A DNA stretch of 64,000 nt from an uncultured Gemmatimonadaceae bacterium (GCA_963740355.1 CAVUDW010000003.1:416001-480000), one strand, 5' to 3'. Counted from the stretch's first letter, positions 13,328-51,051 are shown. A program made the numbers and translations. Notes: generated by a model not told the origin, from the sequence alone.

Positions 13328-13668
13328 CGTATCGACCCCTGTCAAGGTCGGGGATCTCACGAGGGGGGCAGGACGGGATGGAGCATGAGAGGCTGCTGGG
13401 ACGTGGCCGGTCCACATCCGGCCCACACGCGGCGCGAAAGGCGTGTCGACGTGCTCTGACGCTGATCGACTTTCAACACCACGCAGCGCGTCTGCTCGCG
13501 TCGGCCGGCGAGGTGATGATGCATATACGCACCGTGTATGTGGCCGGCGGCACACCATTTCGGTCGCGCGGATTACCACCAGCTCACTGAGTCATGCGTG
13601 CCAATCGGGAGTCTGTCGCTTGACCCGGTGGGCACAGGATTTGGGACACGACGTGGCGCAAAACGACG

Positions 13669-13701
13669 CAGACCCGCTGATCACGACGATCAGCGGGCCT
13701 G
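13669..13701 (-). terminator. Hairpin downstream of tRNA fragment 1
   Basis: CCCGCTGATC-ACGAC-GATCAGCGGG stem; no clean U tract. Confidence 0.45.
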
Positions 13702-13729
13702 CAACTCTTTCAGAATCAAGACCTTCGAA

Positions 13730-13907
13730 ATCGGGACGACAGGATTCGAACCTGCGACCCCCTGAACCCCATGCTCCGGGTCGGTAGCACAAGTCGTTGC
13801 TATACAGGGGGTTATGGTATCCAAACATGGATACGTTGCCCAGATTCAGGGGGTCATTGGCTCGCGGGGGACGTGTTCGGGGACAAAACGTCGCCAGCAA
13901 CGTCGCC
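13730..13907 (-). mobile_element. att-like junction 1: tRNA-Pro(GGG) 3' fragment (13731-13772) plus arm
   Basis: Minus strand ATGGGGTTCAGGGGGTCGCAGGTTCGAATCCTGTCGTCCCGA (anticodon loop, T arm, acceptor 3' strand); 5' half absent; repeated at 50874. Confidence 0.9.
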
Positions 13908-14063
13908 GGGAAAACCGGGCCCGTTCGTGTCACAAATGCGGTCTACCTGCGGCGTGTCGCCGAGACGAGGCCTGCGCCAGCGTCGGACGCCGCCCTGCCC
14001 CTCTGCGCCGGCAGGGAGAAGGCGTCCGCCAGCCGTTGGATCGATGGAGATCAATCGCTGCGC

Positions 14064-14498
14064 TCAGCGACGCAGCGCCAGCACGACGACGCCGGCCGTG
14101 ACCATGGCAATCCCGATCCAATCGCGTGGGCTCGGCCGCTCGCCGAGGAAGACCACCGCGAAGACGGCGACCAGCACCACACTGAGCTTGTCCACCGGGG
14201 CGACGCGTGCGGCGTCACCGATCTTCAGCGCGCGGTAGTAGCACACCCACGACGCCCCGGTCGTGAGCGCCGACAGCGCGAGAAATCCGAGGGACCGTCG
14301 CGGCAGCGCGAAGGGGTCACGCCATTTGCCGAGCGCTGCGACGAACACGCCGAGGACCATTGCGATCATGGCGGTGCGGACGAGCGTCGCGAAATCCGAG
14401 TCGATCCCCTCCAACCCGGATTTGGCCGACACCGCGGTCAGCGCTGCGAAGACCGCGGACGCAACGGCCCACGGCAACCATCCGTCAGGTGCGCCCAT
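14064..14498 (-). CDS. EamA/DMT family transporter
   Basis: SAVFAALTAVSAKSGLEGIDSDFATLVRT...YYRALKIGDAARVAPVDKLSVV. Confidence 0.9.
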   Translation of the reverse strand: MGAPDGWLPWAVASAVFAALTAVSAKSGLEGIDSDFATLVRTAMIAMVLGVFVAALGKWRDPFALPRRSLGFLALSALTTGASWVCYYRALKIGDAARVAPVDKLSVVLVAVFAVVFLGERPSPRDWIGIAMVTAGVVVLALRR

Positions 14499-14745
14499 AC
14501 CGGCCTCCATCCAGAAGAAATTGCGCCCGCACAATGCGCACCGAGATGCAAGAGCCTGTGCGCGTCAGCGGGTCTGAGGACAGGCGCCTCGGCTCACGCG
14601 TGGCCATTCGGAGTATAGTCCCGAAGTCGCCGCACATCTCTCTCCCCGTGTGGCGTCCACACGGCACATATAAAGCGCCTCGGTGCCGACGTTGCCTCCC
14701 GCAGACAGTGGGGGTGCCCCTTTGCCTGTGTCCCGCACACCCACC

Positions 14746-15111
14746 ATGCCCACCGCCTCTGAGGACGACCACACGGACGCAGACCAGGTGACCGTCGCCG
14801 AGCTCGCTCAGCGCGACACCATCGCGATCCATGTGCTCTCAGTCTCCGCCACGATGGTCGGCGTCTGCCTGACCGTCATCGGGATCCTCCGCGTTGCCGC
14901 GCGGAACAACCTCGCCGGAACGCTCGCCGACGATCTGGTCGCCGTGGACGCGATTCTCTTCCTCTCCGCGGCACTGACGGCCTACGGTGCGCTCCGCTCA
15001 CGACGTATCGCAACACGGCGGCGCATCGAGGGCTGGGCTGATGTCCTCTTCGTGCTCGCGCTCGGCGTGATGACACTGGTCTGTGTCCTTGTCACGTGGA
15101 CGGTGCTGTGA
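14746..15111 (+). CDS. Small three-TM membrane protein
   Basis: HVLSVSATMVGVCLTVIGIL...LADDLVAVDAILFL; three hydrophobic segments. Confidence 0.75.
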   Translation: MPTASEDDHTDADQVTVAELAQRDTIAIHVLSVSATMVGVCLTVIGILRVAARNNLAGTLADDLVAVDAILFLSAALTAYGALRSRRIATRRRIEGWADVLFVLALGVMTLVCVLVTWTVL

Positions 15112-15147
15112 TTCGCGCAGTCACGGATTGAAATCCTACCGGACGCA

Positions 15148-15720
15148 TCACGCGGCGTTGGGCACCGACACCGTCGCCTTGCGCTCGAGCTTTCCCCACC
15201 CGACGATGCGCCCACGCAATGCGGCCACAAATGAGCGCACGACGATCCAGTACATGACCTGCCGGTACGCAACGCGCTGCAGGAAGATCAGCCATGTCAG
15301 ACGGCGATCTTCGCCCGGCTCCATCATGAAGGCGATCACCGCCGCCACCCAGTCCACGACAAGGAAGACCAGCAGCTGCTCGAGATTCGTCACCGCGTAA
15401 GTCTCACCGTGCTCACGCCACGTCAACCAAACAGACACGAGGCTCCACAGGAAGACGAGATCGACGAGCGGCGACACCGCGGCGAACAGCAACTGGAAGA
15501 CCCAGACGTTCGGCATCGCGACCAGCCCGAGCGTGCCATAGCGTCGCCGGCGCAGCACCTCGCGATGCTTCCACATGCACTGGAGCGTGCCGACACTCCA
15601 CCGGAATCGCTGTTTTGCGAGGCCGGCAAACGTATCTGGCGCTTCAGTGTACGCCTCGGCCATGTTGGCGTAAGCGATACGGAATCCAAGCCGGCTGATG
15701 GCCAGCGTGAGGTCCTGGCG
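15148..15720 (-). pseudogene. GT2 glycosyltransferase (PgaC/IcaA-like), C-terminal remnant
   Basis: DLT...AYTEAPDT...KQRFRWSVGTLQ (QxxRW) and WGKLERK; upstream sequence lacks the DXD region. Confidence 0.75.
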
Positions 15721-15940
15721 CTCCCGCAACGCGCGACCGATAGGAAGCACGGGTGAGCACCCCGACGACTGGGCGGTTTTGAACCGATCCATGCGACGTC
15801 GCCGCCGGGTGTCCAGGAGGGGACGCGCTACGTCAGCACGTGGACGCGAGCGCACCGCTTGTCGCTCGGGCTGACCATACAGCACCAACTCTAGCCGGAC
15901 CGCCGCGCCGACGCCAAGCCCACTGACTTCAGCGCTGCAG

Positions 15941-19050: not shown

Positions 19051-19113
19051 AGTGAGGCTGCAGTGAGCATCGTGTCAGTACGATAGGCCGCGGTACATCA
19101 CTCCAGCCTCACT
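19051..19113. promoter_or_regulatory. Two oppositely oriented AGTGA-N6-AGTGA boxes between mprF and the divergent gene
   Basis: AGTGAGGCTGCAGTGA (19051-19066) and TCACTCCAGCCTCACT (19098-19113). Confidence 0.65.
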
Positions 19114-19125
19114 CCCCGGGACCCG

Positions 19126-21976: not shown

Positions 21977-23743
21977 ATGAGCCGCTGCAGCGTGCATGGA
22001 AAGTGTCGGGGCGGCGTGCAACACGTCGCCCCGACACCCGTGTGCGCGATGCTGGCACTGCTCGCCTTTGTTCTGTACGCTGCGAATCTGCGTGCGCAAT
22101 CCCAACCGGCATGTGCGGGCACCGATACGGTGCCTGTCGCGCGCTACTCCGGTCGACGCATCAGTGCGGTCGACATCCAGAGCCTTGCACCATATCGCCT
22201 CTTGGGGCCGATATCGCCAATGATCCATGTGACAACGCGCGAGCTCTACATCAGAGAACGTTTGCTGTTCGCCGTTGGTGATACCGTCGACACGCTGCGG
22301 ACGGCGCAGTCTCTCCGACAACTTCGCTCGTCGCGTGGATTGCTCGGTGCGTCGCTCGAGGCGCGATGCGTGCCGGATGGTGGAGTTGCCCTGCGTGTGT
22401 CCACGCGTGACGCGTGGAGCCTTCGGCCACGGGTGGATATGCGGGGCAGCGGCCGGGTGACCGCCTTGGTGGAGGAGGCAAACTTACTCGGAACGGGACG
22501 ATCAATACGCGTGTACGGGCGCGCGGAACGCGGCGTGATCGGAGTCGGTGCCGCGCTGTCCGATCCCACGCTGTTCCACGGAAAGGCGACCGCGACGATT
22601 GCGCACGACATCCTGCAACGCGGCACGATCAGCGCGCTGTCGATGCAGTCACGGGACGCCGGAGCCCTCTCCGAGCACGACTTCGCCGTCGCGCTGACTG
22701 CAATGACACTGACCGATGTCGGACGTGACGCGGCACCAGTCTCGCGCGAATCGATACAGCGCCAAACTGCGACAGCACTGATTCAGAAGCGGGTCGTGTG
22801 GCGCCCGGAGGCCTCCCTCTATCTGCAGGTCGGCGCGGAAGCCGAGCGCACGACGCTGCAGGCACGGCTGCCGTTCGCGGGTGCCGGACCGGCGGCGGTG
22901 CGACGCGATTTCGTAGGCCTCGATGTGGGTGCGGCACGCCGTTCGGCGCGCTATCTCGCTGTACCGTGGTTGGTTCCCGGCACTGCAGCGCCAAGTGGAG
23001 CGGATGCAAATGCCGCGGAGGTGCCGACCGGGACCGAACTCGATGCGGTGCTGGCACTTGGCCGGGATCTGCGGAGCAGGCGGCCGGCAATACACGTTGA
23101 TTCATGGTTTGGCCGGATCTGGGCGATGGGTGACGGCGGCGCACGCGGCGACACGCATGCGCCCCGCGCGCTGCTGGCAACAGATCTGTGGCTGAGCGGA
23201 TATCGCACGGGCGGCTCGGGTGCGTGGTCGGCCGGAGATGCACGATTCTCCCTCGCGGCCAGTGCGCCGGCGCGGCGAGGTCGATGGACCGCGCGCGCCG
23301 CCGTCGAGCACATGGCTGACCCCGACCCCGATGTCCGCACGCTGAGCTTCGCGGAGCCGCTCGGCGCCGTCGCCTGGCGCGATGCGAGAGCGGCCGAGAG
23401 CGCCGTAACGATCTCAATGGATCGCAGCGTGCAACTGCTCCCACCAATCCGCGGCTACGCGTTGGACGGTGTGGCATTTGGCGCCATGACGACACGATGG
23501 GAAGTGACGCCGCGCACCGGACTCGCGGCCGCCACCACTGCGCGTATTCAGCAAGCCGTTCTCGGTATCGGCCTGCGCCTGAGCCCAACACACTTCGTCG
23601 CGCCGACAATGACAATTGGCATCGGTGTTCCGCTGCTGCGCATGCCGGGTAGTGCGATGTCACCCGTGCTCAGCGTCTCCGTGTCTCCGCCGCTTGGCCG
23701 CGGACGACAACGCGCACGCCGCGCACCATACATTCCCCGATGA
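21977..23743 (+). CDS. POTRA-like / Omp85-like outer-membrane protein (divergent)
   Basis: TTRELYIRERLLFAVGD..LRQLR..STRDAWSL..EEANLLGTG. Confidence 0.6.
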   Translation: MSRCSVHGKCRGGVQHVAPTPVCAMLALLAFVLYAANLRAQSQPACAGTDTVPVARYSGRRISAVDIQSLAPYRLLGPISPMIHVTTRELYIRERLLFAVGDTVDTLRTAQSLRQLRSSRGLLGASLEARCVPDGGVALRVSTRDAWSLRPRVDMRGSGRVTALVEEANLLGTGRSIRVYGRAERGVIGVGAALSDPTLFHGKATATIAHDILQRGTISALSMQSRDAGALSEHDFAVALTAMTLTDVGRDAAPVSRESIQRQTATALIQKRVVWRPEASLYLQVGAEAERTTLQARLPFAGAGPAAVRRDFVGLDVGAARRSARYLAVPWLVPGTAAPSGADANAAEVPTGTELDAVLALGRDLRSRRPAIHVDSWFGRIWAMGDGGARGDTHAPRALLATDLWLSGYRTGGSGAWSAGDARFSLAASAPARRGRWTARAAVEHMADPDPDVRTLSFAEPLGAVAWRDARAAESAVTISMDRSVQLLPPIRGYALDGVAFGAMTTRWEVTPRTGLAAATTARIQQAVLGIGLRLSPTHFVAPTMTIGIGVPLLRMPGSAMSPVLSVSVSPPLGRGRQRARRAPYIPR

Positions 23744-23849
23744 AGCACCGGAGCTGATAATGCTGGGACCGAAACGCATCGCCACTGGCGGTCGAGCCAC
23801 CGTTTTCCGCCCAGCGTATGGCCGCCGCCCGCGATTGGGGCACATTGGC

Positions 23850-26222
23850 ATGCGACTCGCCGCTGTGCTGTCGCTCTGCGCCAGCGTCGCCGTTCCCGCG
23901 CAGACTGTTCCGGCAGCGAGCGCCGCGCACGCAATACCGTCAACGGTTTGCGTCGCGCATGCGCCGGGAATCGTCAACACAGTCGAGGACAGCACCGTCT
24001 ACCGTTCGCCGTCGCTCTGCCAGTTGGTCGCAGAGCTCGCGGCCGAGGCACGACACGTACCGGCCGCGCTGACGGACTACCGTGTCAGCGTCGAAAGTGA
24101 AGTGGCCTTCATTCTTCGGACTGCTGCGGCCGCACAAGGCACCGGTTCAACCGTCTCGTCTGCCGACGCCGGTCGCGAGCGCTTGCTGCAAGTGGAACAG
24201 ATCGAGAGTGCGCTGAGGTGGGAACGCAACGGCACCGTCGATCAGCACATCATCGGGTATCGTTCGCGCGCGGTGACCGCGTCGCCGTCGGCACTCAGCG
24301 TGCTCCGTCAGCCGTGGGTGGTACCGGTGCTCTACGGAAATCGCCTGCAGCTCCTGCTGGGTCGACGCGCATCACGCACCGACTCTTCTGGCACGACGCA
24401 CGGATCGGCAGCCGCCGCCAGCGCACTGCTCGCAATCCACCCGTTCGCAGACGACCGTGCGCAGGTGTATCGCTTCGGGGGCGGCGATACGGTGGCTGTC
24501 CTCCGGCTCGGACCACGTGCCGTCACCGTCGTACGCATCACGGTCGATCCAGCAACGGCACCGCGGGGCCGGACACTCCTCTTCCGCGGTACGATTGACG
24601 TCGATGCCGAGCGCCACCAGATCATCCGGATGCGCGGGCAATTCGTGATCGAAGCACGGCAGCGCAGTGTCATCCGCCGAGCCCTGAATGCCGCCTGGGA
24701 AACAGTCGTGTTTGCCGAGCTCGAGAACGCGGAGTTCGATGGGATATACTGGCTGCCATCGCGACAGCGGATCGAGGGACAGGCACGATCGGCATTTGCT
24801 GGCGAGTTGCGCCCATTGATGCGGGTGGTGAGCCGCTTCACGAATTACCGCATCAATCAGTCCGGACGTGGCGAAGCATCGCTGGCGGGTGGCGCAAGTG
24901 ATACCGCCCGGGCGCCAGCGGCGCGGATCACGTTCGCGCCGCGTGATAGCATGAGCGCCTTCGATGCATGGCAGTCGGCGCTCGGTACCGCGACGAACTC
25001 CACTGCGCGCGCGACCGACTTCGACGACATCGCACCAGATCACTGGCGTCCCGCCGGCGCACCCTTCCTGGATTGGCGCGCGGACCGAATCAACGATGTG
25101 TTCCGCTATAACCGTGTCGAGGGAGTGTTCACGGGGCTCTCCGCGACCCTCCGATTTCGGGACGCTGCGCCCGGGCTGAGTGTGGGTACGAACGTCGGCT
25201 GGGCTTGGGCAGAACATACGCCTCGCGGCTCCGTTTGGTCCCGCTGGGCGCGCGGACCGTGGCTGTTCTCAGGACGCGCCGAACGCAGCCTCGTCAACAC
25301 GAACGATTTCCGACCGTTGCTCGACTACGAACAATCGCTGATGGCGTTGCTCGTCACGGCGGATGACTACGACTACGTGGATCGTCGAAGCGTCGTGGTT
25401 GGCATGACACGAACGCTCCCGATTCGCGGCGCGCCAGCGTTCCATATCGAAGCTGGCCCGGCGTTCGATCGCGGCGAAGTTGCACGCGTCAGGTACGGGC
25501 TGATCCATCTGGATTCTGCGTTCCGCGGAAATCGCGCCGCCGCGACGGGCGGGTATGTGCATACAGCCGCTGGCATTGACCTTCATCCGAATGTAACGGG
25601 TGACTTTCTTGCGCCAGGCGTTGGCGGTGGACTCTGGTACGAGCGCGGTGATGGGCCCCTGAGCTGGCAGCGACTGGAGGCACGACTCACAGCGAGGCGG
25701 AGTATCGCTGCACTGATCGTTGCGGGTCGGCTCGACGCGATCGCGTTGTTCGCGAAACAGCCCATCCCGCAACAGGTGATCGAGTTCGGCGAATCCGAAG
25801 GATTACCTGGATACGCGTACAAGGAGTTTGGTGGCGACCGCGCGGTGCTGGCACGCGGCGCGGTGGAGTATCAGCTCCCATTCCTTCGTACACCCATTCG
25901 GCTCGGCGGTGGCACAGGACGCATCGGCCGCCTCGTGCTGCCGGGCCTGTCGCCGTCCATCGCCGTCGGGGGACAGGCAGGTTGGGCCGCAGCGCGCGAT
26001 CCGTCGACCCGGGCTGCACTCGCGTTGTTCGGGACGCGGCGCGACAGCGTGTCCGGCGCGCTCGTCCTTGCTACGCGACCAACCGACGGGATCCGCTCGA
26101 CTCTGAGTCTCACACTGAGATTGTTCGGCGGCACGATCGGACTCGGCGTTGCACGCCCACTCGACAGCCGTGGCTCGACGCGGGGCTGGAACTTTGTCTT
26201 TGGCGCCGGGCAGGCATTCTGA
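23850..26222 (+). CDS. Large outer-membrane beta-barrel protein (DUF5686-like)
   Basis: Signal peptide; FRYNRVEGVFTG; LPGYAYKEFGGDR; terminal Phe (GQAF); alternative start 23760. Confidence 0.7.
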   Translation: MRLAAVLSLCASVAVPAQTVPAASAAHAIPSTVCVAHAPGIVNTVEDSTVYRSPSLCQLVAELAAEARHVPAALTDYRVSVESEVAFILRTAAAAQGTGSTVSSADAGRERLLQVEQIESALRWERNGTVDQHIIGYRSRAVTASPSALSVLRQPWVVPVLYGNRLQLLLGRRASRTDSSGTTHGSAAAASALLAIHPFADDRAQVYRFGGGDTVAVLRLGPRAVTVVRITVDPATAPRGRTLLFRGTIDVDAERHQIIRMRGQFVIEARQRSVIRRALNAAWETVVFAELENAEFDGIYWLPSRQRIEGQARSAFAGELRPLMRVVSRFTNYRINQSGRGEASLAGGASDTARAPAARITFAPRDSMSAFDAWQSALGTATNSTARATDFDDIAPDHWRPAGAPFLDWRADRINDVFRYNRVEGVFTGLSATLRFRDAAPGLSVGTNVGWAWAEHTPRGSVWSRWARGPWLFSGRAERSLVNTNDFRPLLDYEQSLMALLVTADDYDYVDRRSVVVGMTRTLPIRGAPAFHIEAGPAFDRGEVARVRYGLIHLDSAFRGNRAAATGGYVHTAAGIDLHPNVTGDFLAPGVGGGLWYERGDGPLSWQRLEARLTARRSIAALIVAGRLDAIALFAKQPIPQQVIEFGESEGLPGYAYKEFGGDRAVLARGAVEYQLPFLRTPIRLGGGTGRIGRLVLPGLSPSIAVGGQAGWAAARDPSTRAALALFGTRRDSVSGALVLATRPTDGIRSTLSLTLRLFGGTIGLGVARPLDSRGSTRGWNFVFGAGQAF

Positions 26223-27082
26223 GCACTCCCCATCTCGCTGTCGGCGGGCGCAAGCCGTTCGCATGGCTGCCACGCTGGACACGCTGGACGCTCTTCGTCA
26301 TCGTGATCGCCGCTGAGGTGGCGACGATGATCAGCTGGCAACTCAGCGGCTCAGACGGTGCACCGAATGCACGTGTGCAAGACGCAGTGCTGCGACAACC
26401 CGGCGTGGAACTCTACCCGGCACGAGGTGGCGCGCTCCGCGCTCGCGCGCTGATCGTCTTCTTCGGCGATAGCGGCTGTTGGCGGCCGTATCGCCGACTG
26501 GCCTCAGCACTGGCCAACGACGGCTACGCCGTCATCGCGGTACATGCTCGGCTTGCGCAGCCGGTGCTAGATTCTGTATCGGCGCGGGCAACAGAAGATG
26601 CGCTGGCAGCGCTGATCCGTCGCGGGATCGCCGAAATATCGCCCACCCTGGAAAGCAGAGCGGGTGCCGCTGCACAGCCGCTGCCAATGCCCGTCGTGCT
26701 GATGGGGCATGCAGAAGGGGCTTCGCTGGCGCTGTGGGCGTCGCAGCACGTCGCGATCAACGCGCTGCGTGGCATCGTGACGCTGTCCGCTCAATCGGCG
26801 GGAAGTCACCCCGCCGACACGCAGCGCACAGTGCACTTCACGCTGACGTCGACCGATCAGGCAGCGCGAGCGCGCGATACGTCACAGGTCATGCTGTCGA
26901 CCGTGCGTGTGGCATCGATCACTGGTTCCCTCGGGCCAGCCGGACTTGTCTCGCGCGTGCAACGGCGTAGTCCGACTGAAGCGGCGTTCGCCGTCCCCTT
27001 TTCAACCGTCCGACTCACCTCACCTTTGCTCACCGGCATCGCAGTACGGCGTTCACTCAACTGGATTCTCGCGCCGCAATGA
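26219..27082 (+). CDS. AcvB/VirJ-like alpha/beta hydrolase with Ser-to-Ala at the nucleophile elbow; start uncertain
   Basis: LIVFFGDSGCWRPYRRLASALANDGYAV; VVLMGHAEGA. Confidence 0.6.
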   Translation: MSTPHLAVGGRKPFAWLPRWTRWTLFVIVIAAEVATMISWQLSGSDGAPNARVQDAVLRQPGVELYPARGGALRARALIVFFGDSGCWRPYRRLASALANDGYAVIAVHARLAQPVLDSVSARATEDALAALIRRGIAEISPTLESRAGAAAQPLPMPVVLMGHAEGASLALWASQHVAINALRGIVTLSAQSAGSHPADTQRTVHFTLTSTDQAARARDTSQVMLSTVRVASITGSLGPAGLVSRVQRRSPTEAAFAVPFSTVRLTSPLLTGIAVRRSLNWILAPQ

Positions 27083-38463: not shown

Positions 38464-41400
38464 TCAGCTGACGGTGCGGACGTAGTCCCTGCCGCGAACG
38501 AGCACGAGCAGCGATGGGACGAGGAAGAGCGTGATCGGTGTGGAGAGGGCCAGTCCACCGAGGACGGCCAGCGCCAATGGCTTCTGAAGCTCACTTCCTG
38601 CGCCGAGGCCGAGCGCCAGCGGCAGCAGGCCGAAGAGCGTGCAGAGTGTCGTCATCAGGATCGGTCGCAGGCGCACGCGCGCCGCCTCCCGCAGCGCCGG
38701 TTCGAGTGCCAGCCCGCGCTCCCGCATCACGTGGTCGGTGAAGTCGAGCAGGATGATGCCGTTCTTCACGATCAGGCCTACCAGAAGGATCGCGCCCATG
38801 AAGCTGCTCACGTTCAGCGGCGTGCCGGTCACCAGCAGCGCGAGGATCGCACCGACGAAGCTGAGCGGGGCTGCAAGGAGCACCACGCACGGCTCTACGA
38901 AGCTGCGGAACTGGATCACCATCACGGCAACGACACTCACCGCCGCCAGTGCCAAGACGAGCAACAGGCTGGCGAACGCGGTCTGCTGCGTCGCATACTG
39001 GCCACCCAGCTCGATCCTGACGCTCTTGGGCGCCGGATGTGCAGCGAGCACCACGCGCACGTCCTTCATCACATCGCCGAGCGACCGCGTCGACACGTCG
39101 GCGGTGAGGCGCACGAGTTGCTGCTGATTCTCGCGTAGCAGTTCGGCGCGGACCGTCTGCGGTGTGAAGCTGGCCACCGCGCCCAGCGGCGTGGCACTGC
39201 GACCGGCCGTCGTGATCACCGGCAGCGACGCCAGTGCGCTCGCGTCGAAGCGCACGGCATCCGGTGACCGCACGCGCACTGCGATGGCGCGGTCATCGAG
39301 TCGCAGCTCCCCTGCCGACACGCCGAGCAGCGCGCCGCTGACGCTGGTCGCGACCTGCTCCGGCGTCACGCCGAGCCGCGTCGCCTCCACGCGGTCGATG
39401 GCCATCGACAGCTCGGCACTGGGCTCGGCGTTGCCGTCGTACACGTCCTCGAGCCCCTCGACCTTCCCCAGGTCGGCCGCCAGTACCTTGCCGTAGCGCT
39501 CGAGCGCCAGCAGATCGGGGCCGAAGAGCTTGATCTCCACCGGCTTCGCCGCACCGGCCAGGTCGTTGATGACGTCAGACAGGATCTGCACGAACTCGAC
39601 GCGCAGGCGCGGCATCGTGGTCGTGATCGAGTCGCGCACACGTCCGATCACACTCCTGCGTCGACGCACTCCGGTTCGCGCGCATCCGCACCACCATGTC
39701 GCCCCGGTTCTGTTCCGTGGCGAACAGGCCGAGTTCGGCGCCGGTCCGTCGCGAGGTCGCCTCGATCTCCGGGGTCCGCGCGAGCAGCGTCTCGACCTGA
39801 TGGATCATCCGGTCGGTTTCGTCGAGCGCGGTGCCGCCGGGCGTCCAGTAGTCGAGGACGAAGGCGCCTTCATCCATCTCCGGCAGGAACCCGGTCCCGG
39901 TGAAGCGATACGCCACGATGCCGCCGCATGCGAGGACGACGACCGTCACTCCGACGAGCATCGCGGTGGTGCAGCACGCCGTCGAGTGCCCGGTCATACC
40001 ATCGCTCGACGCGACCCGGCCCATGATCGACAGTCTCCGTGCCGGTCAGGTACGCTGCGCACAGCAGCGGGATGATCGTGAAGGCCAGGACGAGCGACAC
40101 CAGCACGGCGATGGTCAGCGTGAGCGAGAGCGCAGCGAAGAACTGGCCGACCACTCCCTCCAACAGCCGGAGCGGTGCGAAGACGACCACGGTCGTGAGC
40201 GTGGACGTCGTGACGGGCCACAGGAGCTCCTGCACCGCATCGCGGATCGCCACGGAGCGCGTCGGCGTCATGCCGAGGTGCCGCACGATGTTCTCGGTCA
40301 CCACCACGGCATCGTCGATCACCAAGCCAATCGCAATCGCCAGCGCGCCAAGCGTCATCAGGTTGAACGTCTGCCCGAGCAGCGACATGATCCAGACGGT
40401 GATCGCGAGGGTGAGCGGGATCACCGAGGCGCTGATGGCCGTCACACGCCAGTTGCGCAGGAACACCAGCAGCACGACGACGGCCAGTGCGGCACCGATC
40501 AGCATCGCATCACGCACCGAGGCCACCGCCGCGCGCACGAGCACCGCCTGGTCGTACACCGGCTTGAGCGCCACCCCCGACGGCAGCGTCGTCGAGAACT
40601 GCGCCGCCAACGCCGCAATGCTGTCGGCCATGCGCAGCGTATTGCCACCGGGCTGCCGCGTCACGTTCAGGAGCGCGGCCGGCCGACCGTCGCCCGCGAC
40701 GAGCCGCACACGATCCTCACGCCCGAGCGTGACGGTGGCGACGTCACGCACCCGTAGGCCGCCGCCGATTGGCACACTCGCGACATCGTCCGGTGAGCGC
40801 GCCTCGCTCTGCGTCACGATCAGATACTGCTTGTAGTCTCGTGCCACGCGACCCACGGCATTCACGCTCGTGGCCTGACGGATGGCGCTGGCGAGGTCCT
40901 CGTACCCGAGGCCGACCTGCGCGAGGCGGGCCGGATCGGCCACGACCTCGAGTTCCCGGACGCTGCTGCCTTGCACATCAACGCGCCCGACGCCGGGCAC
41001 GCGCGCGAACACAGGCCCGATCTGGAAGCGTGCAATGTCGTAGAGACGTCGCCGCGTCACCGCCTTCGAGGTTGTAACTCACGATGGGGAACACGGACGG
41101 CGTCAGCCGCTCCACCTGCAGCACGATGGCCGCTGGCAGCTGCGACCGCACGGCGTTCACGCGGGCCTGCACCAGCTGCAGGGCGACCTGCATGTCCGTG
41201 GTCGGCTGGAACGTGACGTTGATCTCGCTCCCGCCACGAATGGAGCGCGACTGCACACGTGTGACGCCGGGCACCACACTCACCGCTTCCTCGAGAGGAC
41301 GCGTGACGCTGAAGACCTGCTGCCGCGCGCCGAGTGTACTGCCCTCGGCCACGACGGCGACGCGCGAGAATTCCAGCTCGGGATAAATCGAGCTCGGGAG

Positions 41401-41520
41401 TCGGAGCGCGGCCCACACGCCGGCGGCGGCGCCGAGCGTCACGGCGAGGAGCACGAATCGCCGCTGCGACGCGAGCAACGAGAACAGTCCGCCGCGTGGT
41501 GTCTCCTTGGGCTCAGTCAT
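38464..41520 (-). CDS. RND efflux permease (CusA/CzcA/AcrB family), split by three frameshifts
   Basis: NLMTLGALAIAIGLVIDDAVVV, GFLPEMDEG, VKNGIIL, RLRPILMTTL; frame changes near 41055, 40000 and 39660. Confidence 0.88.
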
Positions 41521-42560
41521 CAACGCCGGACCGAAACGTGCACGCCGTCGTCGACCTGATACGCCCCGTCAGTGACGATGCGCTCACCGACCGCCACCCC
41601 TGTGTTGATCTCGACGCGGTCATTGCGGCGTGCACCGACCGTGATCGCTCGTGCATGCGCGACGTTTGCGCTGTCGACCACATAGAGGCGGAAGGCGTCG
41701 CCATCGGGGACGACGGCCGCCGCCGGCACCACGACGGCGTTGGCACGTGCCGCGAGCGCAATGCGACCGCTGACCGACTCGCCGATGCGCAGCTGCCGGA
41801 CCGTCTGCAACACACGCACGCGCACCGCGATGGTCCGCGTGGCACTGTCGATGGCCGCCGCGACGCTTGAGACGACACCAGTCCCAAGCGAGTCGTCTGC
41901 GTGCACGGCCCCCGACCCGAGCACCACCATCGCGCCTGGCGTGACGTGCGCTGCCTCCGTGGCACTCACGGCCAGCACGATGTCGGTGAACCGCGGATCG
42001 GCCACCTCCACCAGCGACGCCGTGCCGTCCACGCTGGCGCCGAGCGTGGCGCTGAGACGTGTGACGACGCCGTCGATTGGCGAACGCACCGTCGCCAGCG
42101 TGCGAAGCCGTCGCGCGGACGCGGCGGCCGCCGAGGCTTGCGCAAGCTCACTCATCGCGACATCGAGATCCTTGCGCGGCGCGATCCCTGCCGTCACCAG
42201 CCGCTGGGCGCGCTCCTGTGCGTGCGTGGCCGTCAGGAGCACCGCGGTGGCCCCCTGCACCGCCGCATTGAATGGCGCCGGGTCCAGCTCGACCAGCACC
42301 GCGCCCGCCGTCACACGATCACCGACCGCCACGCGCACCGCACTCACCCGCGCCGCGCCCGGCGCGCCGAGCGAGGCGATGTGTCCTGGCCGCACCGCCA
42401 CGACGCCGATGGCATCGATGGCGTCGGCAAACGTCTCGGACGTGACGGTGACCACGCTCACCGCCACGGTAGGCGACTCCGGCGCTCCGCTCGCCGAACC
42501 GCCTCCACAGGCCACGAGCGTCAAACCGCACGCCACCACTCCCAACCGTCGGGCCATCAC
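41520..42560 (-). CDS. RND membrane fusion protein (lipoprotein)
   Basis: LVAC lipobox; VAVGDRVTAG, VRSPIDGVV, IDSATRTI, VVVPAAAV. Confidence 0.9.
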   Translation of the reverse strand: MMARRLGVVACGLTLVACGGGSASGAPESPTVAVSVVTVTSETFADAIDAIGVVAVRPGHIASLGAPGAARVSAVRVAVGDRVTAGAVLVELDPAPFNAAVQGATAVLLTATHAQERAQRLVTAGIAPRKDLDVAMSELAQASAAAASARRLRTLATVRSPIDGVVTRLSATLGASVDGTASLVEVADPRFTDIVLAVSATEAAHVTPGAMVVLGSGAVHADDSLGTGVVSSVAAAIDSATRTIAVRVRVLQTVRQLRIGESVSGRIALAARANAVVVPAAAVVPDGDAFRLYVVDSANVAHARAITVGARRNDRVEINTGVAVGERIVTDGAYQVDDGVHVSVRR

Positions 42561-43891
42561 GGGCGCTCCGTCTGTGTCACGAGCCGTTGGGCGGCAATCG
42601 CCGTCCAGAGGGTCGCGAGATCATCGATGTACTGCGTCATCACGTCACGGGCGTTGCGTCGCGCCTCCAGCACACTCGGGAGCGGCGCCGCCCCTTCGCG
42701 ATACGCCTGCACCGCGAGCGCGGCGACGCGCTCGGCGGTCGTCAGCAGGCGTGCATCCCGTTCAACGCGCGCCTCGGCGGCCGTCCGATCCCGGGTCGCG
42801 CGGGCGATCTGGCGCTGCGATTCGAGCGTGACGACCGCCAGGGCGGCCTGTGCACGCGCGCGCTCCGCCTCCGCTGCCTGCACGACGCCAGCGTTGCGTC
42901 CCGGGAATGGGATGGGGAACGCAACCCCAACCGTCGGCAGGCGCTGGGTCTGCGCACCGGTCGGATCACCCTGCTCGAAACCCGCCGTGAGACTTGGCGT
43001 GCCGAATCGCGACCGCTTCTCCAGCGCCACCTGGGCCTCGGCCGCTGATACGGACGCGGCGGCTGATGTGACGCGGAGGGGCGCGCCGTTGCTCGGCCTC
43101 GGTGCAGCGATGACCGGCACGCCGAGCGTGTCGGCCAGGCTGATGCGAAGCGTGTCGGCCGGTTCGCCGATCAGCGTCTGCACGTCGAGGAGCGCACTGA
43201 TTGCTGCGATGGAATCGCCCGCCGCCACGTTGGCCTGCTGTCCCGCGACGATGGTGGCGAGCTGCACGTCGAGTTCACTGGCGTCGCCGGCGTCGCGGCG
43301 TGCTTCTGCGATACGTCGCAGGCTGTCCGCGTCAGCCGCGTTGCGTCGGGAGAGCGTGGCGCGCGAGGCCGCCGCGAGCGCCCGCGTGTACGCGGTGTCC
43401 GCATCAAACGCGATGCTCGCACGATTGTAGGCAAACTGACCGCGCGCGGCGCGTTGCATGGCGCGCGCCACCGCGAGCCGGCGACTGCGCAGCAGCGCAC
43501 CATCCATCGGCAGTTCGCCGATGATGTGATACTGCGGAGAGGATTGGGTGTAGCTCGCCTGCAGGTTCGGCTGAAATCGCACACCTGCCGTGCGGTAGTC
43601 GGCGGCGGCGCGGGCGGTATCCGCGGCGATGAACGCGACCAATGGTCCACGCGTCACCGCGGCGGCGACCGCGTCGAAGCGGGACACTGGTCGCTGGGCC
43701 TGCGCCGAGGCGGTCACGAGACACACCAGGAGCGCACTCGCGAATCTCGCTCGAGGAATACGGTGGCCTGCGGCGCGATTCGCACGGTCGCCGACCATGT
43801 GCCCGTCTGAAGCCAACGGCCGCGTGTGCCGACGCATCAGCAGACGCCACGTCATCTGAACGAGTCGGCGCCGCGACGCGAGCTGCCGCAT
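42557..43891 (-). CDS. TolC family outer-membrane efflux protein
   Basis: RRDAGDASELDV, AYREGAAPLPSVLEA; upstream of MFP and RND. Confidence 0.85.
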   Translation of the reverse strand: MRQLASRRRLVQMTWRLLMRRHTRPLASDGHMVGDRANRAAGHRIPRARFASALLVCLVTASAQAQRPVSRFDAVAAAVTRGPLVAFIAADTARAAADYRTAGVRFQPNLQASYTQSSPQYHIIGELPMDGALLRSRRLAVARAMQRAARGQFAYNRASIAFDADTAYTRALAAASRATLSRRNAADADSLRRIAEARRDAGDASELDVQLATIVAGQQANVAAGDSIAAISALLDVQTLIGEPADTLRISLADTLGVPVIAAPRPSNGAPLRVTSAAASVSAAEAQVALEKRSRFGTPSLTAGFEQGDPTGAQTQRLPTVGVAFPIPFPGRNAGVVQAAEAERARAQAALAVVTLESQRQIARATRDRTAAEARVERDARLLTTAERVAALAVQAYREGAAPLPSVLEARRNARDVMTQYIDDLATLWTAIAAQRLVTQTERP

Positions 43892-44868
43892 CAGAACCGC
43901 ACGGAGAGTGCGAGGCCGGTTTGTCCTGCGGGTGCGGCGGAGACCGAGGCCGACATCGTTGGTCCGTGACCGGACGGCAGGAACACGCGGTCGATCCAGT
44001 TGTCGGGTGAGGCGTGCTGACGACGCACCACCGCCATCCCGCTGAGCGTACCAACGCCGGCACCGAGCATCACGTCGCTCAGCCAGTGCTTGTCGTTGTA
44101 GACGCGTGACGCACCAACGAGCGCCGCGGCGGCGTAGGCGATGGGCGCGATGTAGCGGGCGTGCCGCGGCCAGCGGTGGCGCGATTCACCGGCGAGCACC
44201 GCGGCCACGGCGAATGCGGCGGTGGTGTGCCCTGATGGAAACGATTGGTATGCTCCACCACCTCGGAAGCCACGCCCTAAGCCGAAAGAACCCGGCATCG
44301 AGTCGCCGACGGCGTACGGGCGTGCGCGACCGAACGCCCCCTTGAGCACGGATGTGAGCACCGCGCTCGTGACAATCGCGCCCGTCGCGTGCAATCCCAC
44401 ATCCGCCACCGTCCGGTTGTGCAACAGCACGCCGGTGCCGTATGCCCCGAGACTGAGCACGACGGTCCCTGGATCACCGAGCTCTCGGAAGAACGCTGCG
44501 GTCCGTCGCACCGCCGGAGGACGCTGCCACTCCGTCTCCTGCGCCTCGCGCGCTAGCGACCCGTCGAACGGGCTCGCAACAGCAGCGGCGAGGATGAACG
44601 CACCGGTCGTCAGGAGTTCGCGTCGTGTCACGAGCGCGTGTGACGAGTCCCACACCACGGCGACGTGGGGCTGAGGGCCCGTTGGGCCGCGACCGGGCTG
44701 GCGACAACCAGCGTAACGCAACACAGGGTGAGCGAAATTGGGAGGCGCACGACGCGGACGACAGGGGTGATGGCGCCAGCCGCGCGCAGTGCCGCAGCGA
44801 CGGGTAACCGGGCTCCGACCAGAGCTCTGCCGCTGGATCGTAGTCCGCGAAGATGACTGCCGGATCAC
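43891..44868 (-). CDS. PAP2 family phosphatase (start uncertain)
   Basis: KGAFGRARP, SFPSGHT, SRVYNDKHWLSDV. Confidence 0.88.
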   Translation of the reverse strand: MIRQSSSRTTIQRQSSGRSPVTRRCGTARGWRHHPCRPRRAPPNFAHPVLRYAGCRQPGRGPTGPQPHVAVVWDSSHALVTRRELLTTGAFILAAAVASPFDGSLAREAQETEWQRPPAVRRTAAFFRELGDPGTVVLSLGAYGTGVLLHNRTVADVGLHATGAIVTSAVLTSVLKGAFGRARPYAVGDSMPGSFGLGRGFRGGGAYQSFPSGHTTAAFAVAAVLAGESRHRWPRHARYIAPIAYAAAALVGASRVYNDKHWLSDVMLGAGVGTLSGMAVVRRQHASPDNWIDRVFLPSGHGPTMSASVSAAPAGQTGLALSVRF

Positions 44869-45476: not shown

Positions 45477-45564
45477 GATCCACACGCTGATGCGACCCTC
45501 GCTGCGGCGCAACGAGGTGACGCAGGTCGGCGAGCGGCGATGAAACGCACATCGTGCGGTACGC

Positions 45565-47417: not shown

Positions 47418-47794
47418 GGCGATGGCTCGGCAGCGAGTCTGTCGGTGATGGATCAGCAGGCGTTCCTCTGCATGGTGAGCGTATTACCTCATTCAGCCGC
47501 CGGCAGCCCGTCATGGTGTGAGCGGCACCTGGATGTGACGAATGGCATCCCGGCCATGCCGAGCACAGGCCATCGGTGCCGCGCGGACGCCACCCCACCC
47601 CCGGGCGCCGCACCCACCGACACCATCGAGGTGCCGTTCACGCTGCCCAGGTGCGATTGGCACGGCACCGCTGGCGCGCAGCCCCGGCTCCACGATTGCT
47701 TTCAATCTAAGGCCAGTCTGCTCACGGCCACATCGACCACCTGCGCCCCCGCCACATCGTGCGTGCCCCACCTTCGGCGACCATCGCTGCGACG

Positions 47795-49024
47795 ATGAAT
47801 GCGTCGACTGAGCCTTCGGTCGACTCGCGTGGTTCGGAGCGCGAACCGCTCCGCCTCGTCGAAGTTGCGGTGGTCTGCGCCGTGTGGGCGTTCTTCGCCG
47901 TCCTCAACCTGCTGTTCGTCGCCTTCACGACGCGCGATGGCGACGCGGGCAGGGGCGGCATCTCGCTCGTCACCGAAGGACGCCACGTCATCCTGCCCAC
48001 GGTGTGGGCCCTGCTCACGATTGTCGTACTCTGGTCGAGTCGGTATGTCCGCCTCGACCGTGCCTTCTGGCGGCAACGTGCACTCGTCGTCATCGGCGTC
48101 TCCGTGATCATCGCCTTCGGCACCGACCTGATCACCGACGCGCTGTGGGATGCCATCGTGCCAGCGTCCATTGAAGATGGGCGTAACACCATCTCCCGAC
48201 GCTTTCGCCCTGGCATTGCCAATTTCAGCTGGCTCGATGACCTCGGAGTCTTCTGGGCCGCGGTCGCCATCGCGTCAGCGCGCGGCTACGTCCTCCGAGA
48301 GCGGGAGCGGCGCCACGCCGAACGCCGTCACACCGAGGCTCTGCGCGCGGAAGCGGCGCAATTGCAGATGCAGCTGGTGGCGGCGCGACTGGATGCACTC
48401 CAGCGGCAGATGGACCCGCACTTCCTGTTCAACACCCTCAATGCCGTCTCGGCGCTCGTCGAGCGGGACCCGCACGGCGTGCGCCAGATGGTCGCGGAGC
48501 TGAGCGACTTGCTGCGGCACAGCATGAGCGCCACCACGGTTCCCGAAGTGCCGCTGCGCGAGGAGCTCGCCCTGCTCGAGCGCTACACCAGCATCATGCA
48601 GATTCGCTTCGCCGAGCAGCTGCGCCTGGTGATGCGCGTCGACGACGATACGCTCGATGCCATCGTACCCAACCTGATTCTGCAGCCGCTGGTGGAGAAT
48701 GCGATTCGCCATGGCGTCGAACACCGTGCCGACGGCGGCCAGATCATCGTCGAGGCACTACGGGATGGCGGGCAACTCGTCCTGCGCGTCCATGATGAGG
48801 GCCCGGATTTGTCGGGAGCACAAGCGGTGACGTCGCCGCGGTCCGATGGTGGCGTCGGACTCCGGAACACCGCATCGCGCCTGACGGCGCTGTATGGTGA
48901 TGCACAGGCTTTGACGCTCACCGCGATTCCAGTTGGCGGGACGGTCGCGGAGATTCGCCTGCCGTTCCGGACGCACGCGCGCCCCAGCGAATTCGCCTCC
49001 CGTTCGGAGACAGGGCATGCCTGA
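47795..49024 (+). CDS. LytS/YehU-type sensor histidine kinase
   Basis: QMDPHFLFNTLN, LREEL, LQPLVENAIRHG, GVGLRN. Confidence 0.92.
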   Translation: MNASTEPSVDSRGSEREPLRLVEVAVVCAVWAFFAVLNLLFVAFTTRDGDAGRGGISLVTEGRHVILPTVWALLTIVVLWSSRYVRLDRAFWRQRALVVIGVSVIIAFGTDLITDALWDAIVPASIEDGRNTISRRFRPGIANFSWLDDLGVFWAAVAIASARGYVLRERERRHAERRHTEALRAEAAQLQMQLVAARLDALQRQMDPHFLFNTLNAVSALVERDPHGVRQMVAELSDLLRHSMSATTVPEVPLREELALLERYTSIMQIRFAEQLRLVMRVDDDTLDAIVPNLILQPLVENAIRHGVEHRADGGQIIVEALRDGGQLVLRVHDEGPDLSGAQAVTSPRSDGGVGLRNTASRLTALYGDAQALTLTAIPVGGTVAEIRLPFRTHARPSEFASRSETGHA

Positions 49025-49871
49025 CCGGGCGAACATCCCCCATCCGCCCGTGCGCGTCCTGGTGGTCGACGACGAACGGCTGGCGCGCGTTCGCCTCGAA
49101 GATTTGCTGCGCCGAGAACGGGACGTAGACATCGTGGGTCTGGTCAATCACGGCGGTGCAGCGGTGGAGGCCATTCGGCGCCTGCGGCCGGACATCGTAT
49201 TTCTCGACGTCCAGATGCCGGTGATGTCAGGTATTGATGTGCTTCATGCCCTGAGCCCCGCGGAGGTGCCCATCGTCGTCTTCGTCACTGCGTTCGACCA
49301 GTACGCGGTGCAGGCCTTCGATCAAGCGGCGGTCGACTACCTGCTCAAGCCGTTCAGCGACGCGCGGTTCGATGAAGCGCTGCGCCGCGCCCGGCGTCAG
49401 GTGGCGCTTGCCGAACTCGACGCCCATCGCGCGGCCCTGGTTGCCGCCCTGACGCGGTTCCGGCCGCCCGAGGGGGCGGAGGCCGGTGCTGGTGACTCGG
49501 AGCCCGCCACAGCCGTGCCAGCACCCGCCGTCACCTACGTCGAGCGCATCCCGGTCGAGATGCGGGGGAAGGTCATGTCGGTGCCGGTCAGCCGGCTCGA
49601 CTACGTCACCGCCAGTGGTTCGTACGCGGAGCTCCATGTCGGTGACCGCACCTACCTGATCCGCGAGTCGATGCAGGCGCTCGAGGCACGACTCGATCCG
49701 GCGCTGTTCCTTCGGGTGCACCGCTCCGTGATTGTCCGCCTCGCACTCGTCGAGGTGCTGCACCGGTCGGGGGGCGGCGACTACGAGGTGCAGCTGAAGA
49801 CCGGTCTCAGGCTGCCGGTGAGCCGGTCCCGGCACACCGCGCTGGAGCGGTGGCTCGGGCTGTCGCGCTGA
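49017..49871 (+). CDS. LytTR family response regulator
   Basis: VVDDERLAR, FLDVQMP, TAFDQYA, FLRVHRS, LPVSR. Confidence 0.95.
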   Translation: MPDRANIPHPPVRVLVVDDERLARVRLEDLLRRERDVDIVGLVNHGGAAVEAIRRLRPDIVFLDVQMPVMSGIDVLHALSPAEVPIVVFVTAFDQYAVQAFDQAAVDYLLKPFSDARFDEALRRARRQVALAELDAHRAALVAALTRFRPPEGAEAGAGDSEPATAVPAPAVTYVERIPVEMRGKVMSVPVSRLDYVTASGSYAELHVGDRTYLIRESMQALEARLDPALFLRVHRSVIVRLALVEVLHRSGGGDYEVQLKTGLRLPVSRSRHTALERWLGLSR

Positions 49872-50027
49872 TATCCGCGCGCCACGATGCCGGCCCCTCC
49901 AATGTGCGATTTCAACCGGCGCTTTTTTACACTCTCAAATCAGCACTGACTGCGCTCCGCAATTCAGAACAAAACGAACGTGCGATTGCTGCCACGTCGC
50001 AGACCGTGCCGACCGCCCGCGGCGCCG

Positions 50028-50645
50028 TCAGCGCGCTCCGAGCTCCTGCTGCGCGTGACGCAGGACCTGCGCGGCGCCAGAAAGCGAGAGCACTCCCATG
50101 ATCATCGCCACCGCGATGTCGGGCCAGCCCTGTCGCGTCGTGAAGACACCGGCGGCGGCCGCAACGACGGCGATGTTGCTGATGGCGTCGTTGCGCGAGC
50201 AGATCCACACCGACCGCATGTTCGAGTCACCGGTCCGGTAGCGATACAAGAGCAGCGCGACACACACATTGGTGGCGAGCGCGATCAGTCCGATCACGGT
50301 CATGACCATCGGTTCCGGCACACGTCCGCTGGCGGCGACGTAGACGGCGTGTGCAATGACCCAGATGCCGAACGCCCCCATCGTTGCCGCTTTGACGACG
50401 GACGCACGCGCCCGGATCGACACGGCGGATGCCAGGACGAACAGACTCAGGCCGTAGTTCGCCGCATCGCCGAGAAAATCGAGCGAATCGGCCTGCAGCG
50501 CGGACGAACCCGCCTCGAGTCCGCCGACCAGCTCAACGACGAACATGATCGCGTTCACGACGAGGGCGATCCAGAGCGCGCGGCGATACAGCGGGGTCGC
50601 CGCGGTCGCCGTGCCACACTCTGGTCCCTGACAGCATGCGCTCAC
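50028..50645 (-). CDS. Cation diffusion facilitator (CzcD-like) transporter
   Basis: Cys-rich N-terminus; SSALQADSLDFLGD, NMRSVWICSRNDA. Confidence 0.9.
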   Translation of the reverse strand: MSACCQGPECGTATAATPLYRRALWIALVVNAIMFVVELVGGLEAGSSALQADSLDFLGDAANYGLSLFVLASAVSIRARASVVKAATMGAFGIWVIAHAVYVAASGRVPEPMVMTVIGLIALATNVCVALLLYRYRTGDSNMRSVWICSRNDAISNIAVVAAAAGVFTTRQGWPDIAVAMIMGVLSLSGAAQVLRHAQQELGAR

Positions 50646-50712
50646 TGAGCCTCCGTCGCCTCGACGCCATGTGTGCCGCAACCACAACCTGGTCACGCGG
50701 GCATCAGGAAAG

Positions 50713-50742
50713 AAAAACGCGGCTCCGGTTCATGGAGCCGCG
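50713..50742 (-). terminator. Rho-independent terminator
   Basis: CGCGGCTCC/GGAGCCGCG stem followed by TTTTT on the minus strand. Confidence 0.7.
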
Positions 50743-50873
50743 CAGTTCACATTCGTTCCGGCTGCGTCCCTGCACGCGTGCGGGGACAAAACGTATCCAA
50801 AAACATATCCGCCCTGCAAAATCGTTGGATACGTCGACCGCCTTAACTCACTTCATTCCAACGGGTTATCCCC

Positions 50874-51051
50874 ATCGGGACGACAGGATTCGAACCTGCG
50901 ACCCCCTGAACCCCATGCTCCGGGTCGGTAGCGCAACCCGTTGCAGTACAGGGGGTTAAGGCCGGAAAATGCGGGTACGTTCCGCCGATTCAGGGGGTTG
51001 CTGGCTCGTGGGGGACAGGTTCGGGGACAAAACGTCGCCGGAAACGTCGCC
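50874..51051 (-). mobile_element. att-like junction 2: tRNA-Pro(GGG) 3' fragment (50875-50916) plus arm
   Basis: Direct repeat of 13730-13907. Confidence 0.9.

Follow-up and report, generated by a model that had tools for sequence, protein, structure and literature searches.

A decayed tandem island array at tRNA-Pro(GGG) in a Gemmatimonadaceae genome and its candidate recombinase family

In the model developed for cis-mobilizable elements (CIMEs), as outlined in the review PMC5704250, an integrated element decays and a newcomer then integrates. In the tycheposon islands of Prochlorococcus, according to the preprint's account (bioRxiv 10.1101/2020.12.28.424599), newcomers push older elements inward, and fragmented integrases and stray partial tRNAs mark the older events. 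The ssrA islands of Dehalococcoides, in the description given in PMC3146451, involve a CcrB-like serine recombinase, a six-gene module, a 20-bp repeat and a tmRNA target. Here we analyse a stretch of 64,000 nucleotides (the window) from an uncultured Gemmatimonadaceae bacterium (GCA_963740355.1 CAVUDW010000003.1:416001-480000), which corresponds to positions 416001-480000 of a 2.58-Mb contig, C3, in the 5.45-Mb source genome, G000. Comparison with 19 genomes of the same genus and 41 outside it, cited below by their G numbers, suggests that the window is probably the interior of a ~185-kb island array at a single tRNA-Pro(GGG) gene, built by the family of a candidate recombinase, P0001, and decayed since. 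Its units are numbered U1 to U6 outward from the tRNA gene. In a full-text literature search (Gemmatimonad islands, integrase, tRNA), none of the ten papers listed out of 12 concerned this locus, as judged by title and abstract.

The array shares features with each of these systems. Like the accretion of CIMEs with ICESt1 and ICESt3 as the review presents it (PMC5704250), it has elements that keep attachment (att) sites and lack integration genes, in tandem with one bearing a candidate integrase at a tRNA 3′ end. Unlike CIMEs and integrative conjugative or mobilizable elements (ICE/IME), its units show no conjugation or mobilisation genes, its recombinase is not recognisable as PF00589 and it is much longer, with at least six units over ~185 kb. 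Older units that would have been pushed inward, integrase fragments, partial tRNAs and a cargo of adaptive and defence genes recall the tycheposon islands as portrayed in the preprint (10.1101/2020.12.28.424599). We do not claim membership: Pfam, NCBIfam and PHROGs found no primase, helicase or other replication module among the genes beside P0001, the phylum and the recombinase family are different, and only a YhaM-like HD-domain protein is conserved beside the recombinase. The Dehalococcoides islands, as PMC3146451 describes them, likewise stand in tandem within 100 kb downstream of one small-RNA gene and are marked off by direct repeats of the 3′ end of that gene, next to which further bases are conserved, and some of their units are without an integration module and were suggested to be CIMEs; their serine recombinase, 20-bp repeat and tmRNA target set them apart. 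Like the arrays treated by Islander and TIGER, in the account of PMC4383910, the locus combines an intact tRNA gene with displaced 3′ fragments in the same orientation, the tRNA and both window fragments being on the minus strand, and an attP centred on the anticodon loop. By the rule given there, Islander accepts a tandem member only with its own integrase gene; U3, U4 and U5 have none, so they would not be called, and P0001 itself would go unrecognised.

Two 3′ halves of tRNA-Pro(GGG), each of 42 nt from anticodon loop to discriminator, lie on the minus strand of the window, at 13731-13772 (junction 1) and 50875-50916 (junction 2). Each is part of a 59-bp core that is identical at the two junctions (13730-13788 and 50874-50932, both minus), and the repeat as a whole (repeat family D8) runs without gaps for 178 nt at 85% identity with a spacing of 37,144 bp, a match that exceeds chance by far. 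A first-pass annotation of this DNA had reported these two halves, their spacing and their 59 identical bp, and our coordinates agree with it. It was also right that the 64 kb contain no intact tRNA: ARAGORN found 0 tRNA genes in the window, in which an Rfam scan gave 0 matches, and Pfam identified the genes flanking the junctions as it had named them, Rrf2 (12857-13576) and EamA (14064-14531) at junction 1 and CDF (50028-50693) and cupin (51092-51952) at junction 2. Following the contig to the right, as the annotation had proposed, leads to the intact gene. Among the 50 tRNA genes of the genome the single tRNA-Pro(GGG) is at C3:567541-567614 on the minus strand, 100.6 kb right of junction 2, with P0001 beside it. 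BLAST of the junction units and a search with a 12-nt arm motif placed related sites only within the same array locus, and all four exact matches to the motif in the 5.45-Mb genome are at array junctions.

A complete seam, read in the orientation of the tRNA, consists of a P arm (~140 bp), the core and a P′ arm (~110 bp). A pair of 9-mers of the form GGNNNCGTT, separated by ~14 bp, is present in either arm, and TTGTCCCC and a second GTCCCC come after it. The 14 P arms that we aligned, from ten genomes (G000 and nine sister species), have several conserved blocks in common, one of which is an inverted copy of part of the core. At junction 1, the P′ arm (13620-13729, minus) is of a degenerate type, C, and is 74% identical to the sequence downstream of the intact tRNA; it would be the attL-side arm of U5, and its type recurs on contig G004:C133, where the site likewise adjoins a stump of the recombinase family. 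The P arm on the other side of this core (13789-13931, minus), the attR-side arm of U4, has the paired 9-mers and GTCCCC motif at 13866-13907 and is 85% identical to the P arm of junction 2. At junction 2, the P′ arm (50761-50873, minus; motif at 50782-50810) is of type B and is the attL-side arm of U4, with the CDF gene directly next to it; its identity with the P′ arms that adjoin the intact tRNA of G001, G014 and G016 is 94-97%. The P arm of junction 2 (50933-51075, minus; motif at 51010-51051) is the attR-side arm of U3. We read these seams as hybrids, in which the attR of one unit is fused to the attL of the next and together they reconstitute an attP, as a tandem array predicts.

Further traces of such sites delimit the array. 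A P′ arm lies beside the intact tRNA at C3:567450, a P arm without a core at C3:536446-536517, a decayed core with a P arm and then an EamA stump at C3:~481.35-481.77 kb (core and P arm at ~481.35-481.53), and a P′-arm-like sequence without a core at C3:415833-415994, directly left of window base 1. The distal chromosomal flank, as located by comparison with G016 and G005, begins near C3:382.5 kb. The array thus spans ~185 kb (C3 ~382.6-567.5 kb; 3.4% of the genome) and has at least six units: the tRNA-proximal U1 (C3:567.5 to 536.5 kb), U2 (536.5 to 481.5 kb), U3 (481.5 to 466.9 kb; 14.5 kb), U4 (466.9 to 429.8 kb; 37.1 kb), U5 (429.8 to 416.0 kb; 13.7 kb) and U6 (416.0 to ~382.6 kb). In the window, U5 occupies 1-13729, and at its left end, immediately beyond the window, the distal P arm and the core have been lost; U4 occupies 13789-50873, with complete sites at both ends; and U3 begins at 50933 and continues past 64000 to the window-equivalent position 65,344. 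The earlier proposal of at least three units, each of tens of kilobases, stacked at one tRNA by one integrase family is therefore supported on a larger scale, and the family can now be given a probable name.

P0001 is a 626-aa open reading frame (ORF) on the plus strand at C3:565533-567410, with 40 bp between its end and the P′ motif next to the intact tRNA. Its family and the sites occur together. Arm-bearing sites were found in 11 of the 19 genus genomes and the P0001 family in 10 of them, and neither in any of the 41 genomes outside the genus. Among 13 family matches in relatives, 11 (several of them C-terminal stumps) share their contig with a tRNA-Pro core, at most 2.9 kb away, in whose direction they read, the exceptions being G011:C200, at 6.8 kb, and G001:C84, a contig without a core. 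Arm types go with recombinase subtypes as well. All four type A P′ arms adjoin genes or stumps at least 70% identical to P0001; four of six type B arms adjoin a full or partial recombinase of a subtype only 30-33% identical to P0001, those without one being junction 2 of the window and G016; and both type C arms, at junction 1 and G004:C133, stand beside divergent stumps.

Five conserved residues of the protein can be aligned with catalytic residues of tyrosine recombinases and are putatively catalytic. We made two family alignments, A1 (9 sequences) and A2 (29 sequences), and compared the family with 33 canonical recombinases from G000 and its relatives. R406 and K436 are invariant in A1 and A2; R542 and H565, invariant in A1, reach at least 90% conservation in A2; and Y587 is invariant in A1 only. 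In hhalign these five residues fall, collinearly, on Arg I, the lysine of GKGxK, Arg II, His and Tyr, which are R163, K190, R261, H284 and Y293 in a canonical alignment, A3; the spacings are 30, 106, 23 and 22 residues in P0001 and 27, 71, 23 and 9 in A3. The comparison gave P 0.0044 over the whole length and, for residues 380-626, a score of 31.5 with P 0.0012 and a probability of 19.8%, against scores of 11-18 and P 0.11-0.75 for nine reversed or column-shuffled controls. With ESM features of the whole protein, the best ten named matches were all in the PF00589 clan (score 0.97, 137 of 256 features shared), and with residues 380-626 this was so for 24 of 30 matches; the number of features shared suggests a distant relative. 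The gene appears to be under purifying selection, with dN/dS of 0.20 between P0001 and its G003 orthologue and 0.15 between those of G014 and G001. The P0001 family is most likely a genus-restricted and very divergent tyrosine recombinase that built the array, with P0001 the presumed catalyst.

The family is rare, with 40 representatives at E ≤ 0.001 among 1.84 billion proteins and six in a word-indexed search. Named members come from Gemmatimonadaceae or Gemmatimonadales metagenome-assembled genomes (MAGs), as do all seven loci returned by a related-locus search with A1. tblastn of P0001 against phage and plasmid collections gave no match; two family genes (E ~1e-46 to 1e-48 against the family hidden Markov model, HMM) are found no more than 540 bp from the ends of two IMG/VR contigs predicted to be viral, L084 and L085, which are 41 and 50 kb long with 71-72% G+C. 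Upstream of the recombinase gene in U1 are a 181-aa ORF and a gene for a 385-aa YhaM-like HD-domain protein (C3:561582-563549). Both are conserved in this position in G000, G001 and G014 (47-89% amino acid identity) and could belong to the backbone of the element family. Among solved structures, the YhaM exoribonuclease comes closest to the HD protein (E 3.9e-13); we rejected a MobH-type relaxase, as the MobH score was 17.9 bits against a cut-off of 200 and YhaM was the better match.

Recombinase genes seem to have been lost from the inner part of the array. Just left of junction 1 and reading towards it on the plus strand is a C-terminal stump, ~32-35 aa long, of a P0001-family gene (13456-13566). 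When we searched the 3,630 six-frame peptides of C3:380-568 kb with the family HMM, the only matches were P0001 itself (E 5e-235) and this stump (E 0.002; peptide 13324-13587, aligned at ~13471-13566 to profile positions 563-594). tblastn with 17 family members agreed, its only other match being 13456-13560 (best with P0007, 57% over 35 aa, E 7e-4); with P0001 alone as the query, the stump reached only E 0.44. Thus an integrase candidate is present only in the tRNA-proximal unit, U5 has only the stump, and U4 and U3 have no recombinase trace by Pfam or the family HMM. U4 nevertheless keeps both attL and attR, with identical 59-bp cores, the P′ arm at 50761-50873 and the P arm at 13789-13931. 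Its P′ arm, taken with the CDF gene, shows 90% identity with the tRNA-proximal array ends of G016 and G001 and 90-97% identity with the ends of the recombinase-bearing elements of G001 and G014, and the rest of U4, past the CDF gene, is unrelated to the elements of G001, G014 and G016. Three relatives would represent three stages of such a loss. A type B recombinase stands directly beside this P′ arm in G014 and 2.8 kb further inward, past CDF-MerR-YnfA, in G001. All that remains of the type B recombinase gene in G016 is approximately its last 90 bp, fused to a partial P arm and core, and since this piece is retained we consider the resulting 3-kb unit a deletion derivative. The same 3-kb CDF-MerR-YnfA unit lies between two cores in a 17.9-kb environmental contig.

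These results change two points of the first-pass annotation. The window had been called integrase-free, and it holds the family stump, with an intact P0001 beside the intact tRNA 100 kb to the right. Its units had been seen as cassettes built without an integrase. The inner units instead look like elements that have been stripped of theirs, because of P0001, the stump and a U4 P′ arm that is 94-97% identical to arms beside full-length family members in two sister species.

Decay also extends to the cargo. An RND transporter gene in U4 (38464-41520, minus) is a pseudogene in four frame pieces. Compared with the intact paralogue at C3:572659-575709, these are 87-90% identical in amino acids, except for the fourth (aa 519-640), which is 69% identical. 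The OEP-HlyD-RND operon to which the pseudogene belongs (38464-44865) is a diverged copy, at 75% DNA identity, of an intact operon (C3:572659-578309) that lies just past the tRNA on the chromosomal side. Other broken genes seen with Pfam are those of a sensor kinase and a PD40 protein, each in pieces, half an EamA gene and a fragment of a GT2 gene. The phosphoketolase gene of U2 (C3:506163-507686) is divided into three ORFs (the XFP_N, XFP and XFP_C pieces) and is therefore probably a pseudogene. Some of these split genes may be sequencing errors.

Standard mobility genes were sought throughout the region. Pfam found no integrase, resolvase, transposase, relaxase or phage gene among the 87 ORFs of the window (where excisionases were also absent), the 90 ORFs of C3:479.5-582.7 kb or the 32 ORFs of C3:380-416 kb. 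For the window this is what the annotation had reported, to which the family stump is the one addition. Six-frame scans, which it had suggested for integrases and resolvases, were run on the whole genome: PF00589 had four matches, none in C3:380-570 kb; PF00239 and PF01609 had 0 matches; and PF00665 had six, none in the array. Five identical rve-type transposase matches (370-aa frames) on contigs C2 and C3 of G000 indicate one insertion sequence in five copies, the nearest to the array at C3:603804. One of the four PF00589 genes, at C3:2343144-2344244 (minus), has homologues named integron integrase at 63-83% identity, many of them from Gemmatimonadaceae, and the genome probably has a true chromosomal integron far from the array. 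A further homologue search, meant to diversify the canonical-recombinase profile, returned only close relatives of the integron integrases. The array is like an integron in that one recombination site accumulates promoter-distal units. It is unlike one in having no IntI, attI or attC, in units of 14-55 kb with several genes on both strands, and in seams that are attP-like tRNA sites, the IntI homologue being far off. The integron-like logic that had been proposed for the units is not borne out by these data: they are multi-gene mosaics with pseudogenes, and several junctions are coreless.

Unit DNA is shared between species. U3 is 89.8-90% identical, as one block of 13-14.5 kb, to G016:C1:130520-145007, where it is the outermost unit and also ends in a P arm and core; G016 is the only one of the 19 genus genomes with this block. 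As background, we took three arbitrary 12-kb segments of the chromosome, whose syntenic counterparts in G016, G001 and G014 are 70-82% identical to them, and the array's own flanks are 79.7% and 83.5% identical to G016. Because integrase-less units are ~90% identical against this 70-82%, we conclude that units have been exchanged horizontally; by this comparison, unit DNA has moved between species since their divergence. U4 shows no block-level synteny in the 19 genomes: there are only pieces of at most 5.2 kb, those of 0.8-5.1 kb in G013, G015 and G019 being 87-94% identical, and otherwise matches at the level of paralogues; the complete unit in its order was seen in none of the genomes. Units could have been carried over within elements that had an integrase, mobilised in trans or transferred by homologous recombination between conserved sites, and the data are compatible with all three routes.

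Taken together, the observations fit a model in which every island brought along an attP that consisted of a P arm, a core matching the tRNA 3′ half and a P′ arm, with its recombinase gene at the P′ end. Crossover would take place within the 42-nt identity from the anticodon loop to the 3′ end and would regenerate the tRNA. Later islands would integrate in the same way, so that every internal seam becomes a P-core-P′ hybrid of an attR and an attL. Deletions would then strip inner units of their recombinase genes (leaving the stump at 13456-13566) and of some cores, and break cargo genes. The recombinase would stay intact only in the tRNA-proximal unit, and the 37-kb interval in the window would be a non-autonomous, CIME-like remnant with both att sites. 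Such a course of integration, decay and later arrivals is the one published for CIMEs (PMC5704250), and it has been described for the ssrA islands of Dehalococcoides (PMC3146451) and the tycheposon islands of Prochlorococcus (10.1101/2020.12.28.424599) as well. Mobilisation of such a remnant in trans is possible.

A number of results weigh against this model. P0001 has no match in Pfam (E ≤ 10), NCBIfam or PHROGs; none of 29 family members matches PF00589 at E ≤ 1; and a PDB profile search returned no recombinase, its only matches being TodS and a designed helical bundle, with E values no better than 0.09. The family HMM reached a best E of 0.028 against the 33 canonical recombinases, no better than against 235 non-recombinase ORFs (best 0.057). 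Profile-profile probabilities were low (7.9-19.8% in our runs), and against a 19-sequence XerC/D-type alignment, with the residue alignment unchanged, P was 0.093 and the probability 0.6%. The His of HxxR is not conserved in the family, and its His-to-Tyr spacing is 16-22 aa versus the canonical 9. At the level of the sites, the pairing of arm type with recombinase subtype could come from physical linkage or co-inheritance alone; U4 lacks any recombinase trace; in G013:C77 the 457 bp between a U4-like EamA end and the end of the contig contain neither a P arm nor a core; and in G001:C67 a canonical PF00589 integrase adjoins a degenerate tRNA-Pro core, from which it follows that more than one family targets the tRNA-Pro gene. 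One could hold that canonical PF00589 integrases, since lost or located elsewhere, built the array, and that P0001, recognised by no family or structure database, is a conserved cargo or backbone gene beside attL. Such an integrase also stands beside tRNA-Pro(GGG) in G044, and G016, whose array is full, gave no P0001-family match at E ≤ 0.001. However, the G001:C67 site is without the arm motif, none of the four PF00589 genes of G000 is near the array and the one that we examined further, at C3:2343144-2344244, has homologues named integron integrase, whereas the residue pattern, the collinear catalytic alignment, the ESM features and the attL position and orientation in 11 of 13 cases fit an integrase. 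We regard this explanation as improbable. An artefact, either mis-assembly or a segmental duplication that carried a tRNA fragment along, is far less credible still. Repeats can mislead assemblers, and metagenome contigs do break at the core, but outside the core the two junctions are different at 15% of positions, their flanks are unrelated, the contig measures 2.58 Mb, and the same junction architecture recurs in 11 of 19 genus genomes, which were assembled independently, as well as in environmental contigs.

A different question is whether the array still works. Integrase-less units might continue to be excised, exchanged and re-inserted in trans by a P0001-family recombinase, on an integron-like platform. 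U4 is flanked by cores identical at 59 of 59 positions with full arms, the P-arm blocks are conserved across the 14 sites in ten genomes, and the same array has an intact recombinase under purifying selection. Recombinase-less U3 is found in both G000 and G016, at 90% identity versus 70-82% for the background, in different array positions and with different neighbours, and the core-bounded 3-kb CDF-MerR-YnfA unit is found in both G016 and an environmental contig. Against this, that unit holds approximately the last 90 bp of a recombinase gene, as a deletion derivative does; several seams are without a core and cargo genes are pseudogenes; and the type B P′ arm of U4 belongs to a subtype only 30-33% identical to the resident P0001. 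When words were sampled from the junction 2 region, no public read run contained over 15% of them, and the contigs of four public runs simply break at the core. The sharing of units, moreover, could predate integrase loss or reflect homologous recombination between conserved sites of 150-340 bp. We find a working cassette system rather unlikely. The broader proposal, that the tRNA-Pro(GGG) locus is a live platform on which large cargo is exchanged between species, an integron analogue made of attP-type sites and served by a lineage-specific recombinase family too divergent for current models to detect, is also unlikely; we keep it in view because recombinase-less U3 and the 3-kb unit are ~90% identical between species and sit at different array positions. 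An array built by P0001-family recombinases and then decayed is the reading that we prefer.

The cargo of the units in the window was assigned with Pfam. U5 carries ArsR/SRPBCC, a sensor kinase in three pieces (4577-7096), an esterase, DoxX, MarR, an F420-type oxidoreductase and Rrf2. Between its split sensor-kinase and esterase genes, at 7238-7395, a 76-nt sequence is repeated twice in tandem with 96% identity and an 82-nt period. U4 carries the half EamA, the GT2 fragment, MprF, DUF3108, three large ORFs without a family, two OmpR/kinase pairs, Omp85, two PAP2 genes, the RND efflux operon, the PD40 protein in pieces, a LytTR pair and CDF. The three large ORFs (21977-27079, plus strand; 588, 868 and 366 aa) match no Pfam family and lie in the part of the window with the lowest G+C (0.625-0.65). 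U3 carries a cupin, three aldo-keto reductases, a LytTR pair, a cupin-CMD protein, a carboxylesterase and molybdenum hydroxylase subunits. The three aldo-keto reductase paralogues (51502-57064) and the two LytTR two-component pairs of the window, one within 51502-57064 and the other at 47759-49868, account for the long diverged repeats D1, D2, D5 and I1. Outside the window, U2 has a defence cluster (C3:483687-495559) with bSEFIR (E 4.5e-44), DUF3800, GajB (8e-176) and GajA (3.5e-205), together with the R and M subunits of a type I restriction system.

The locus is likely a long, decayed tandem island array of a known kind, whose builder is likely an unannotated and divergent recombinase family. 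Island finders that require an integrase per unit would miss both the ~185-kb array and the recombinase family behind it, and with them a store of metal resistance, efflux, envelope-remodelling and defence genes. The locus would offer a tractable case for studying whether units that have decayed but keep intact att sites are still mobile. Confirmation of P0001 would add a tRNA-Pro-specific integrase clade, invisible to Pfam and NCBIfam, in a poorly studied phylum of soil and freshwater.

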